Source: Escherichia coli
GTDB taxonomy: Bacteria; Pseudomonadota; Gammaproteobacteria; Enterobacterales; Enterobacteriaceae
Length of the DNA: 64,000 nucleotides
Reading direction: 5' to 3' (one strand)
Assembly (NCBI RefSeq): GCF_048403405.1
Contig: NZ_CP183129.1
Shown: in pieces, positions 55,001 to 58,000 of the stretch
Layout of the letters: each line of letters starts with the position of its first letter
Position numbering within the stretch: position 1 is the first letter of the stretch
Position numbers: made by a program

Positions 55001-58000
55001 ACCGGAAGTACAGACCAAGCACTTCACTCTGAAGTCTGACGTTCTGTTCACCTTCAACAAAGCAACCCTGAAACCGGAAGGTCAGGCTGCTCTGGATCAG
55101 CTGTACAGCCAGCTGAGCAACCTGGATCCGAAAGACGGTTCCGTAGTTGTTCTGGGTTACACCGACCGCATCGGTTCTGACGCTTACAACCAGGGTCTGT
55201 CCGAGCGCCGTGCTCAGTCTGTTGTTGATTACCTGATCTCTAAAGGTATCCCGGCAGACAAAATCTCCGCACGTGGTATGGGCGAATCCAACCCGGTTAC
55301 TGGCAACACCTGTGACAACGTGAAACAGCGTGCTGCACTGATCGACTGCCTGGCTCCGGATCGTCGCGTAGAGATCGAAGTTAAAGGCATCAAAGACGTT
55401 GTAACTCAGCCGCAGGCTTAAGTTCTCGTCTGGTAAAAACCCCGCTGCTGCGGGGTTTTTTTTCGTCTATAGAAAATTGAACTGACTTTCGTCAGTTATT
55501 CCTTACCCAGCAATGCCTGCAGATCCTGCTTCAAAGAAGACATTTTATTCGCGTATTTCTCTTTGTTTTCCGCATCTTCAATCAGCTGAACAATCGTTTC
55601 AGAAAGCGTTTTACCGCGACGCTGCGCAAGACCAGCCAGACGTTGCCAGACAATAAATTCCAGATCGATCGATTTTTTGCGCGTATGCTGGTGTTCCGCA
55701 TTAAAATGGCGCTTCCGTCTGGCCCGAATGGTTTGCTTCATGCGATTGACCAGTTCCGGATTCATATGCTTGTCAATCCAGCCATTTACCAGCACGGGTT
55801 CATTTTCCAGCGAGAGCAACACATCGACGGCTTCCTGGGCGGCACTGGCTTCTATGTAACGGGTGATTAACTCCCCTTCGCGATGCTTCTTCACCAGATA
55901 CTTCCATTTCCAACCGCTTTCAAGATTTTCAAGTTGTTGATATTTCATAGCGATCTCAATGTTACCGTGTAACTCTTTACAGAATATCAGCTTTTTGGGC
56001 CAGTGAAGAAAAGAATCTCCATCCTGTGAGCTTTAACGCCCATGCCAGGAGTATTGTCGGTGCTTTCTACGTGTGCTGCAGTGCCGGTTACGGTATAATC
56101 GCGGCTTTGACAACAGACTAAAAAACATCAACTTTGACCATTACGAAACTTGCATGGCGTGACCTGGTTCCTGATACCGATAGCTATCAGGAAATATTTG
56201 CTCAGCCACATTTGATTGACGAAAACGATCCTTTATTCAGTGATACTCAACCGCGACTGCAATTTGCGCTGGAGCAGTTGCTGCATACGCGAGCATCCTC
56301 CTCTTTTATGCTGGCGAAGGCCCCGGAAGAGTCTGAGTATCTGAATCTTATTGCCGATGCCGCGCGTGCGCTACAAAGCGATGCAGGCCAACTGGTGGGC
56401 GGTCACTATGAGGTTTCCGGGCACACCATCCGCTTACGTAACGCAGTGAGTGCAGATGATAATTTTGCGACTTTAACGCAAGTTGTCGCTGCCGACTGGG
56501 TAGAAGCGGAACAACTCTTTGGCTGCCTGCGCCAGTTTAATGGCGACATTACCCTGCAGCCAGGTCTGGTGCATCAGGCAAATGGCGGTATTCTCATCAT
56601 CTCTTTGCGTACACTGCTGGCGCAACCTCTGCTGTGGATGCGGCTGAAAAATATCGTTAACCGCGAGCGTTTTGACTGGGTTGCGTTTGATGAGTCGCGC
56701 CCTCTCCCCGTCTCTGTGCCTTCGATGCCATTGAAGCTGAAAGTCATTCTGGTAGGCGAACGCGAATCATTGGCTGATTTCCAGGAGATGGAACCAGAGC
56801 TTTCAGAGCAGGCTATTTATAGCGAATTTGAAGATACTCTGCAGATTGTCGATGCGGAGTCAGTAAGCCAGTGGTGTCGCTGGGTAACATTGACCGCCAG
56901 ACATAATCACTTACCTGCACCGGGAGCGGATGCCTGGCCGGTGCTTATCCGCGAAGCAGCACGCTACACCGGTGAACAAGAAACACTTCCGCTTAGCCCG
57001 CAGTGGATCCTCCGCCAGTGTAAAGAGGTCGCCTCCCTGTGCGATGGCGACACCTTCTCCGGCGAGCAGCTAAACTTAATGCTACAGCAGCGTGAATGGC
57101 GCGAAGGTTTCCTCGCTGAACGCATGCAGGATGAGATTCTTCAGGAGCAAATCCTGATTGAAACCGAAGGCGAACGCATCGGGCAAATTAACGCCCTTTC
57201 GGTCATTGAATTTCCGGGTCATCCACGCGCTTTTGGCGAACCTTCTCGCATTAGCTGCGTTGTGCATATTGGCGATGGTGAATTCACCGACATCGAACGC
57301 AAAGCGGAGCTTGGCGGCAATATCCATGCGAAAGGGATGATGATCATGCAGGCGTTCCTGATGTCGGAACTACAGCTTGAGCAACAGATCCCCTTCTCAG
57401 CATCGCTGACATTTGAGCAGTCATACAGTGAAGTGGATGGCGATAGTGCCTCGATGGCTGAACTCTGCGCCCTGATAAGCGCCCTCGCCGATGTGCCGGT
57501 GAATCAGAGTATCGCTATCACAGGTTCAGTCGATCAGTTCGGTCGTGCCCAGCCGGTCGGTGGTTTAAATGAGAAAATCGAAGGCTTCTTTGCTATTTGC
57601 CAGCAACGTGAGTTAACCGGGAAACAAGGTGTCATTATCCCCACTGCTAACATTCGCCATTTAAGTCTTCACAGTGAACTGGTGAAAGCGGTAGAAGAAG
57701 GCAAATTCACCATCTGGGCAGTAGACGATGTAACTGACGCACTGCCGTTATTATTAAATCTGGTGTGGGATGGCGAAGGCCAAACGACGCTGATGCAAAC
57801 CATCCAGGAACGTATCGCGCAAGCATCGCAACAGGAAGGACGTCACCGTTTTCCATGGCCATTACGTTGGCTGAACTGGTTTATTCCGAACTGATCGGAC
57901 TTGTTCAGCGTACACGTGTTAGCTATCCTGCGTGCTTCAATAAAATAAGGCTTACAGAGAACATGGTAGATAAACGCGAATCCTATACAAAAGAAGACCT

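Follow-up and report, generated by a model that had tools for sequence, protein, structure and literature searches.

The Escherichia coli gene ycbZ carries two names, 'AAA family ATPase' (the RefSeq product) and 'putative ATP-dependent protease' (RefSeq/UniProt-derived), and these raise the question of whether its product depends on ATP at all and to which kind of protease it belongs. We explored this question in a 64,000-nucleotide stretch of E. coli contig NZ_CP183129.1, hereafter the window, in which the gene is placed as follows:

56134..57894, plus strand: ycbZ coding sequence, 586 codons plus a TGA stop, encoding a 586 aa protein

The open reading frame translates from MTITKLAWRDL, and the window DNA is 100% identical to the RefSeq E. 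coli ycbZ (WP_000156476.1). Of 5426 complete E. coli genomes, 5425 carry this core gene. An earlier, sequence-only reading had seen here a Lon-type serine protease lacking a Walker A motif and opening at TTG, and had proposed either an ATP-independent Lon-like protease or a partner-dependent enzyme. We consider it likely, with good confidence, that YcbZ is a Lon-like serine protease of the LonC kind, with a TTG start and an ATPase-shaped domain stripped of its nucleotide-binding motifs. The database names are misleading; the sequence is that of an ATPase-dead, LonC-like protein without the LonC helical arms. LonC proteins of the ATP-independent kind have been known since 2012 and already have a name and solved structures; this reading of ycbZ is correct but not new.

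Protease domain and place in the Lon family

The C-terminal half of the gene encodes the catalytic part and its signatures:

57163..57774, plus strand: Lon S16 protease domain, residues 344-547 (Pfam Lon_C; aligns with MtaLonC up to residue 691)
57445..57447, plus strand: codon AGT of catalytic Ser438, in G-D-S (aligned with MtaLonC S582; invariant in 119 homologues)
57574..57576, plus strand: codon AAA of catalytic Lys481 (aligned with MtaLonC K625; invariant in the same 119)
57598..57621, plus strand: LonC-specific insertion 1, CQQRELTG, residues 489-496 (aligned with MtaLonC C633-G640)
57679..57693, plus strand: LonC-specific insertion 2, LVKAV, residues 516-520 (aligned with MtaLonC V660-V664, VLEAV)

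Pfam Lon_C (PF05362) matched at 39.9 bits (cutoff 21.1), assigning the domain to the Lon family (MEROPS S16) and bearing out the Lon-type serine protease region pointed out earlier at VDGDSASMAELCALISAL (residues 434-451, nt 57433-57486). The domain is 202-217 residues long across 119 family members (206-208 in nearly all), and G436, D437, S438 and K481, with them the Ser-Lys dyad, are invariant in these homologues down to about 30% identity. The Asp before the catalytic Ser is a LonB/LonC signature under the published Asp-versus-Pro rule (PMC9569914). Both LonC-specific insertions, for which the published consensus is CX3GLX(G/E) and phi-X2-A-phi, respectively (PMC3391209), are present: the first with one deviation (Glu for Gly), the second with a full fit, and C489 and A519 are nearly invariant in the 119-sequence alignment.

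Sequence and structure comparisons agreed in placing YcbZ closer to LonC than to LonB or LonA. Its best solved relative was MtaLonC/TTC1975 (E 1.6e-57, YcbZ 140-547 against 296-691), with E-values of 4.5e-15 for LonB 3k1j and about 1e-4 for LonA. The AlphaFold2 monomer model (pLDDT 95.1, pTM 0.90) superposed on the MtaLonC crystal structures with a full-length TM score of 0.82 (0.80-0.83 on both normalisations), compared with 0.71 for TonLonB and at most 0.41 for LonA; identity to MtaLonC in the structural alignment was 25-26%. Consistently with this placement, the 2012 LonC paper had put homologues from Klebsiella, Salmonella, Vibrio and Yersinia in the LonC clade (PMC3391209).

YcbZ has the same domain order as the LonC proteins of Meiothermus taiwanensis (MtaLonC) and Thermus thermophilus (TTC1975; PDB 4fw9, 4fwd, 7euy, 8k8v), namely an AAA-like module without working Walker motifs followed by an S16 protease with a Ser-Lys dyad and an Asp before the Ser, and both protease-domain insertions are common to MtaLonC and YcbZ. 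Unlike MtaLonC (732 aa), the 586 aa YcbZ comes from a mesophile and bears an extra C-terminal tail with a ribosome-stalling motif; where MtaLonC has a helical-hairpin extension, YcbZ has a 45-residue, mostly beta-hairpin segment; its Walker A position reads APEESEYL instead of GPPSLGKH, and the Walker B Asp, retained in MtaLonC, is Ser. Archaeal LonB (TonLonB, Thermococcus onnurineus; PDB 3k1j, 4zpx) resembles YcbZ in its AAA-plus-protease layout, in having no LonA-type N-domain, in the G-D-S motif and in the position at which the alpha/beta subdomain is interrupted by an insertion; however, in LonB both Walker motifs, A and B, are intact and the insertion carries a membrane anchor, whereas YcbZ has neither these motifs nor a hydrophobic anchor, and it scored 86 bits against the LonB model TIGR00764 (cutoff 516.6). 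Canonical LonA (E. coli Lon, protease La) has in common with YcbZ the S16 protease fold, the Ser-Lys dyad and the logic of a ring-forming chambered enzyme, but it also has a functional AAA+ motor, binds substrate through a large N-terminal domain and has a Pro, in place of the Asp of YcbZ, before the catalytic Ser; the match is confined to the protease domain (E about 1e-4; TM 0.3-0.4), and TIGR00763 gave 31 bits against a cutoff of 608. A relation to BrxL or to defence-associated Lon-like proteins was rejected (TIGR02653, E = 0.26; PADLOC, only a 14.6-bit partial CARF-Lon match), as was a location in a variable defence island, the gene being core and in fixed matP-ycbZ-fabA synteny.

AAA-like module and its erased Walker motifs

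The region upstream of the protease domain contains the following features, assigned from alignment A1, Pfam and the models:

56320..56343, plus strand: vestigial Walker A (P-loop) position, APEESEYL, residues 63-70 (A1 and models)
56374..56505, plus strand: reduced insertion site, mostly beta-hairpin, residues 81-124 (A1 and models)
56551..56808, plus strand: Pfam AAA_32 (LonB-like AAA domain), residues 140-225 (E 6.4e-14, profile positions 35-124 of 133)
56590..56607, plus strand: Walker B position, ILIISL, residues 153-158 (aligned with MtaLonC GGYLILDA)
56854..57141, plus strand: alpha-helical lid subdomain of the AAA-like module, residues 241-336 (models)

Structure prediction and domain annotation with HMMs, both put forward as checks in the sequence-only reading, gave the same picture of an AAA+ fold whose catalytic motifs are gone. 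Residues 1-340 form an alpha/beta Rossmann-like subdomain followed by a helical lid, and they matched MtaLonC and the TonLonB ATPase domain 4zpx (TM 0.66/0.67), then PspF, NtrC1, LuxO, BchI and MCM. Among Pfam models, Lon_C and AAA_32 matched (AAA_32 with 52.5 bits, cutoff 21), no P-loop model matched YcbZ, and an intact AAA+ module was not detected. AAA_32 covers the second half of the alpha/beta subdomain; its profile is restricted to the part of the domain that follows the insertion, and the P-loop precedes that insertion. As a positive control for the P-loop models, P0196, a relative that keeps GPSGTGKT, was weak and remained below cutoffs (AAA_16, 26.3 bits against 32.6; AAA_22, 21.8 against 27).

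A regular-expression search of the whole protein confirmed the absence of the Walker A motif GxxxxGK[ST], finding none of G....GK[ST], [AG]....GK[ST], GK[ST] or G....G[KR], and the Walker B pattern hhhhDE is missing too. In the models, the Walker A position sits where a P-loop belongs, between strand beta1 (residues 58-62) and helix alpha1 (67-80). In the Walker A columns of A1, three long relatives have GPSGTGKT, GSEGIGKT or GPKGSGKS and many others GxxGxGK[H/E], while in YcbZ the three Gly are replaced by Ala, Glu and Glu and the Lys by Tyr. At Walker B, the Asp has become Ser and the Glu has become Leu; at this Asp column (157), 44 of the 71 long forms have Asp and 23 of the 41 short forms have Ser. 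The alignment thus makes YcbZ more degenerate than MtaLonC at both Walker positions. An independent hhalign comparison of the N-termini gave the same Walker A register (P = 0.002, probability 13% for the N-terminal 95 residues); the sequence case for these 95 residues is modest, and homology of residues 1-139 rests mainly on the fold matches.

The insertion site of YcbZ occupies the position of both the LonC helical-hairpin extension and the LonB membrane anchor. Its length in A1 is 45 residues in YcbZ, 13-24 in forms of 540-568 aa, about 90 in those of 650-670 aa and 130-250 in those of 700-840 aa (about 82-250 in all forms longer than 610 aa). Pfam LonC_helical (PF20437) had no match in YcbZ at E<=1; in a Pfam scan of six representatives of the 119-sequence alignment, it was above cutoff in P0163, P0161 and P0196 and, in P0154, just under its 24-bit cutoff (23.5 bits). 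YcbZ is therefore best described as belonging to an extension-less branch of the LonC clade, and not as a typical LonC. Family members range from those with an intact P-loop, through those with GxxGxGKH, to those in which it has been erased completely, and the length of the insertion falls alongside from about 230 to 13 residues; this graded series is a natural example of an AAA+ motor decaying stepwise to a pure scaffold.

Proposed working of YcbZ and competing explanations

By analogy with its LonC relatives, the ycbZ product would be a soluble, self-compartmentalising serine protease that does not need ATP. The dead AAA-like module would serve purely as a scaffold that forms a ring, most likely hexameric, and supplies the degradation chamber with its upper half, and only polypeptides that are already unfolded or disordered would enter and be cut, with no energy-driven unfolding. 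MtaLonC and TTC1975 lack ATPase activity and break down unfolded substrates independently of ATP (PMC3391209; PMC13069640), and MtaLonC still binds ATP-gamma-S, which promotes the closed, active hexamer (PMC3391209; PMC13069640). In YcbZ, whose loop contains acidic residues, even this kind of nucleotide binding may be absent, so control of its assembly could differ from that of MtaLonC. In MtaLonC, long helical-hairpin arms serve substrate capture and chaperone activity (PMC13069640). Since these arms are missing, YcbZ probably has a more exposed pore and acts simply as a protease of peptides or unfolded chains, and substrate selection is not transferable from MtaLonC. Our literature search found no biochemical experiment on YcbZ itself, and its ATP independence, proteolytic activity and ring assembly are those expected from a relative of 25-26% identity. 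Of the two explanations offered earlier, the ATP-independent Lon-like protease is nonetheless the one that gained support, the closest relative being LonC and the nucleotide-binding motifs being erased.

The other, a partner-dependent protease to which a separate unfoldase or adaptor delivers folded substrates, found none in gene order, no AAA+ gene being a conserved neighbour, and we regard it as unlikely. YcbZ indeed has no built-in motor and is without the helical arms by which LonC captures substrates, and a two-hybrid contact with RNase E through the C-terminal 22 residues has been published (PMC13232886); however, matP, fabA and rmf are the genes found next to it, both within Enterobacteriaceae and among distant relatives, with no conserved AAA+ or adaptor gene, MtaLonC acts alone on unfolded substrates (PMC3391209), and the contact with RNase E was seen by two-hybrid only and went unconfirmed by pull-down in the same study (PMC13232886).

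Slightly less probable still is a protein whose protease activity is secondary and whose main task is that of a chaperone or scaffold acting on the machinery of translation or RNA decay. The chaperone mode of the MtaLonC heptamer (PMC13069640), the genetic links to translation and the two-hybrid link to RNase E would fit such a role, but invariance of the Ser-Lys dyad and its surrounding motifs in 119 homologues argues for selection on catalysis, and the helical-hairpin extension, to which LonC chaperone activity is tied, is the very part that YcbZ is missing.

It is very improbable that YcbZ is a cryptically ATP-dependent protease using a non-canonical site for nucleotide binding and hydrolysis, as implied by database names saying ATPase or ATP-dependent: the AAA+ fold is complete and MtaLonC has kept nucleotide binding, but in YcbZ every Walker A position is replaced and the Walker B Asp-Glu pair is Ser-Leu, LonC proteins with far better preserved loops still have no ATPase activity (PMC3391209), and no P-loop HMM matched YcbZ, whereas AAA_16 and AAA_22 gave sub-cutoff hits on the motif-keeping P0196.

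Published genetics tie the physiological role of YcbZ to translation and to sensitivity to ribosome-targeting drugs. Erythromycin selection repeatedly yields loss-of-function ycbZ mutations, and reconstructed inactivation confers resistance (PMC4079197; PMC7686311); a role in translation is attributed to Gagarinova 2016, as cited in PMC8848927 and PMC7686311. For an ATP-independent LonC-type protease, the mechanism behind the erythromycin-evolved mutants and the translation links would have to do without energy-dependent unfolding. The practical value of the finding is small.

The two ends of ycbZ: TTG start, C-terminal tail and fabA

Three features define the 5' end of the gene:

56094..56099, plus strand: TATAAT, a -10-like hexamer about 35 nt 5' of the start, at a conserved offset
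56119..56121, plus strand: in-frame TAA, the upstream bound of the open reading frame
56134..56136, plus strand: TTG start codon of ycbZ, the first start after the stop, the RefSeq CDS start and the start in 81/81 loci

The comparison covered 81 loci: one from RefSeq E. coli and 80 from Enterobacteriaceae genomes that are species representatives. The TTG at 56134 is the first ATG, GTG or TTG past the TAA, and the next in-frame ATG is codon 59. The homologous start codon is TTG in all 81 loci, down to 71% protein identity, with an in-frame stop 12-18 nt upstream in most of them. Codon periodicity is already visible from codon 2: over codons 2-11 of the 81-locus comparison, variability is 0.26 at the third position versus 0.09 and 0.10 at the first and second. 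The start at TTG proposed from the sequence is thus upheld by conservation, by codon periodicity and by the identical RefSeq CDS start. Translation from a downstream codon such as Met59, with the TTG merely the first possible codon of an over-extended frame, is extremely improbable, even though TTG is weak and preceded by no Shine-Dalgarno sequence and Met59 is the first in-frame ATG: beyond the TTG of all 81 loci with its stop close upstream and the third-position-biased variation from codon 2 on, residues 1-58 are conserved as protein, modelled with high confidence and include the Q39-x-R41 helix common to long LonC forms, Met59 lies within strand beta1, so that a start there would cut the fold, and a 46%-identity homologue also opens with TTG-ACT and a similar N-terminal peptide.

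A TATAAT or TATACT hexamer is conserved at the same offset in the 81 loci, and a consensus promoter scan found no full sigma-70 -35/-10 pair near ycbZ. On the basis of the conserved hexamer and of published RNA-seq, the TATAAT at 56094-56099 is probably an element of the primary promoter of ycbZ, which would give an A-rich leader of about 28 nt without a Shine-Dalgarno sequence. The weakness of these start signals suggests low expression. A terminator-like 9-bp hairpin at 56168-56193 (codons 12-20) is kept in many genera, but we rejected it as a regulatory structure, uncompensated synonymous changes breaking it in some genera; the conserved Pro-Asp-Thr...Tyr-Gln-Glu codons probably produce it incidentally.

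At the 3' end, two features overlap:

57889..57905, plus strand: AACTGATCGGACTTGTT, FadR operator region of the fabA promoter, with exact limits that we presume here; overlaps the Asn586 codon and the TGA stop of ycbZ
57775..57891, plus strand: C-terminal helical tail with the ribosome-stalling motif, residues 548-586 (PMC8848927)

In the published stalling motif, Pro585 occupies the P site and Asn586 the A site (PMC8848927); the YcbZ model has a pLDDT of 63-69 over the last 20 residues. The AACTGATCGGACTTGTT region falls within the gel-shift probe used for FadR at fabA (PMC4259882), and AAC-TGA is invariant in all 81 loci.

In 80 of the 81 Enterobacteriaceae loci, the gene immediately 5' of fabA and in its orientation encodes a short or intermediate-length YcbZ-type protease, and the arrangement recurs in eight of nine distant relatives at 33-46% identity. 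The strong stall at the last two codons of ycbZ coincides with the FadR operator of fabA, 68 nt 5' of fabA. Although these features speak for it, it is doubtful that ycbZ and fabA form a functional unit, in which translation of the ycbZ tail would tune fabA on a read-through transcript or the protease would act on membrane-lipid homeostasis. A membrane-lipid role, if true, would explain the resistance of ycbZ disruptions to erythromycin, EDTA and other permeability-limited agents. Against such a unit, Pro585, which the stall needs, is replaced in 44 of the 81 loci; the overlapping operator offers a simpler reason for AAC-TGA being invariant, and the conserved gene order could reflect a shared transcript only.

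A LonC-clade protease domain in YcbZ

One reading frame carries the protein:
56134-57894, + strand, ycbZ, encoding the 586-aa YcbZ (N-terminus MTITKLAWRDL)

The DNA was 100% identical to E. coli ycbZ, a gene carried by 5425 of 5426 complete E. coli genomes. Its flanking genes were matP on the opposite strand and fabA on the same strand, 68 nt downstream. The Lon-type serine protease region proposed by the sequence-only reading was confirmed: the motif VDGDSASMAELCALISAL occupies residues 434-451, and Pfam matched Lon_C and AAA_32 and no other family, while the NCBIfam equivalogs LonB, LonA and BrxL all scored far under their cutoffs. 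Among solved structures, the best sequence match by a wide margin was LonC of Meiothermus taiwanensis (MtaLonC, the prototype) and Thermus thermophilus (TTC1975) (E = 1.6e-57, YcbZ 140-547 against 296-691), followed by archaeal LonB (E = 4.5e-15) and LonA protease domains (about 1e-4). In the MtaLonC sequence alignment, Ser438 and Lys481 matched the catalytic S582 and K625, and G436, D437, S438 and K481 were invariant in 119 homologues sampled to about 30% identity. Asp437 is of the LonB/LonC type, since the residue preceding the catalytic Ser is Asp in LonB and LonC and Pro in LonA (PMC9569914). YcbZ also has both LonC-defining insertions described by Liao et al. (PMC3391209). The one that follows the Lys helix, of consensus CX3GLX(G/E), reads C489-QQRELT-G496; the one in helix alpha5, phi-X2-A-phi, reads L516-VKA-V520.

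LonC was defined in 2012 as a clade including gamma-proteobacterial homologues of Klebsiella, Salmonella, Vibrio and Yersinia (PMC3391209), and LonC structures have already been solved. MEROPS counts only eight thermophile proteins as LonC proper (PMC9569914), which leaves YcbZ formally outside that entry; one defining feature of LonC, the helical-hairpin extension, is absent from YcbZ. YcbZ is thus best called a LonC-clade branch without the extension and with fully erased nucleotide motifs. A Lon protease lacking a P-loop, probably ATP-independent and starting at TTG, as originally read, is correct and of a kind already known.

An AAA+ scaffold with erased motifs

No part of YcbZ fitted a Walker A pattern, whatever the stringency, as had been suspected. 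We found 3098 relatives among 1.84 billion cluster representatives searched; their length differences fell almost entirely at one site, from helix alpha1 to about YcbZ residue 125, which is occupied by the extension in LonC and by the membrane anchor in LonB (PMC13069640).

Length of the insertion site among aligned relatives
540-568 aa forms: 13-24 residues
YcbZ-type, about 575-606 aa: about 34-51 residues (YcbZ, 45)
650-670 aa forms: about 90 residues
700-720 aa forms: 130-150 residues
Forms of about 800 aa and longer: about 230 residues

Pfam LonC_helical gave no match in YcbZ, and exceeded its cutoff in three of four tested relatives (662-832 aa), the fourth, P0154, falling just below. The stretch of the long forms (>610 aa) that runs from the N-terminal helix through strand beta1 and the P-loop to helix alpha1 is matched by YcbZ residues 41-80. 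An independent profile-profile comparison, of the 95-115 N-terminal residues, arrived at this register too, with weak statistics (P = 0.002). Three of 71 sampled long forms (P0196, P0202 and P0227, 815-837 aa) keep a canonical Walker A (GPSGTGKT, GSEGIGKT and GPKGSGKS). Many others have GxxGxGK[H/E] in these columns; the lysine position is Lys or Arg in 54/71, mostly as GxxGxG[K/R] with H, R or E next in place of Ser/Thr. In short forms the P-loop is wholly lost, and YcbZ-type proteins read APEESEYL. One family thus holds a graded decay series of Walker A, from canonical through partial in long forms to lost in short ones. At the Walker B position, Asp is kept in 44 of the 71 (hhhhDA), and YcbZ has ILIISL.

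The full-length AlphaFold2 model (pLDDT 95.1, pTM 0.90) matched MtaLonC crystal chains, of about 590 ordered residues with the extension disordered, at TM 0.80-0.83 by both normalisations, and TonLonB, the Thermococcus onnurineus LonB, at 0.71. Modelled on their own, residues 1-340 (pLDDT 89.6) matched MtaLonC best, next the TonLonB ATPase domain taken alone (4zpx; TM 0.66/0.67), and after it bona fide AAA+ ATPases, namely sigma-54 activators, BchI and MCM. These matches indicate that the predicted AAA+ fold of YcbZ is intact, though its catalytic motifs are erased; the module is a pseudo-ATPase scaffold, rather than the intact AAA+ module that would contradict the sequence-only reading. The ycbZ sequence contradicts two database names, "AAA family ATPase" (RefSeq product) and "putative ATP-dependent protease" (UniProt-derived); "Lon protease family protein", carried by many orthologues, is the safer name.

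What our analysis establishes for YcbZ is its architecture, an intact dyad, the loss of the nucleotide motifs and of the extension, and a conserved TTG; our literature search found no biochemical study of YcbZ itself. MtaLonC has no ATPase activity, forms rings and cleaves unfolded, not folded, substrates without ATP (PMC3391209, PMC13069640). YcbZ, having no P-loop and this ATP-free clade relative, is probably an ATP-independent Lon-like protease, as first suggested. By analogy, it would form a ring and cleave unfolded or disordered chains independently of energy, and would do so without the LonC arms that serve capture and chaperoning.

The TTG start and its leader

56094-56133, about 40 nt from TATAAT to TTG (gactaaaaaacatcaact)
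56168-56193, inverted repeat within ycbZ codons 12-20

We compared 81 loci (80 species-representative Enterobacteriaceae genomes and one RefSeq E. coli locus; 71-100% protein identity). After an in-frame TAA at 56119, the TTG at 56134 is the earliest canonical start codon, the next in-frame ATG being codon 59, and RefSeq uses the same start. The homologous codon was TTG in 81/81 loci, most having an in-frame stop 12-18 nt upstream. Variability at codon positions 1/2/3 was 0.09/0.10/0.26 in codons 2-11, and this coding-type, position-3-biased pattern persisted to codon 58; these codons are therefore translated, which upholds the proposed start. Residues 1-58 were confidently modelled and contain Q39-x-R41, a motif common to long LonC forms. 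TTG-ACT also begins one relative at 46% identity, more distant ones having ATG or GTG; we found no N-terminal proteomics evidence for YcbZ.

A TATAAT/TATACT about 35 nt upstream of TTG was conserved in the 81 loci, none of which had an obvious Shine-Dalgarno sequence before TTG. The A-rich leader is unusually conserved across genera, and the first five codons show little synonymous change, which suggests that a weak initiation region of an unusual kind is under constraint. The perfect 9-bp inverted repeat (TTCCTGATA...TATCAGGAA), flagged as terminator-like, is kept by many genera and broken in others by uncompensated synonymous changes, and is therefore probably a by-product of conserved codons.

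Physiology, the gene end and fabA linkage

ycbZ was repeatedly mutated under erythromycin selection in two independent evolution experiments, and reconstructing its inactivation gave resistance to agents including erythromycin, EDTA and norvaline (PMC4079197, PMC7686311). PMC8848927 and PMC7686311 cite Gagarinova 2016 for a part played by ycbZ in translation and in suppressing stop-codon readthrough. A two-hybrid signal with RNase E was obtained for the last 22 residues of the protein (PMC13232886), and the last two codons, Pro585-Asn586, are among the strongest E. coli ribosome-stall sites (PMC8848927).

57886-57905, end of ycbZ and the overlapping AACTGATCGGACTTGTT, which begins with the final AACTGA of ycbZ
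57892-57965, ycbZ-fabA junction
58509-58533, hairpin between convergent fabA and rmf

ycbZ ended AAC-TGA (Asn586 and stop) in 81/81 loci, with the fabA ATG 68-70 nt beyond. AACTGATCGGACTTGTT, which we take to be the FadR operator region of fabA, has this AACTGA as its first six bases; the published stall therefore sits on operator sequence, and this overlap suffices to explain the invariance of AAC-TGA. The FadR gel-shift probe for fabA spans AACTGATCGGACTTGTT (PMC4259882). Pro585, needed for the stall, was variable, the final two residues being PN (37), SN (24), HN (7), QN (5), AN (4), RN (3) and TN (1).

Directly downstream of ycbZ-type genes, fabA lies on the same strand after a 45-120 nt gap (loci L002-L081, L082-L084, L086 and L088-L092), in 80/81 Enterobacteriaceae loci and in eight of nine distant short or intermediate relatives at 33-46% identity (P0126, P0142, P0133, P0138, P0158, P0144, P0151 and P0154). 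The ninth, P0145, had no direct fabA neighbour, nor did P0161, the one long LonC form examined (812 aa). Two of the eight keep the full matP<-ycbZ->fabA<-rmf order. Between the convergent fabA and rmf lies a strong bidirectional terminator-like hairpin with an 11-bp stem (GAAACCTCCGC...GCGGAGGTTTC).
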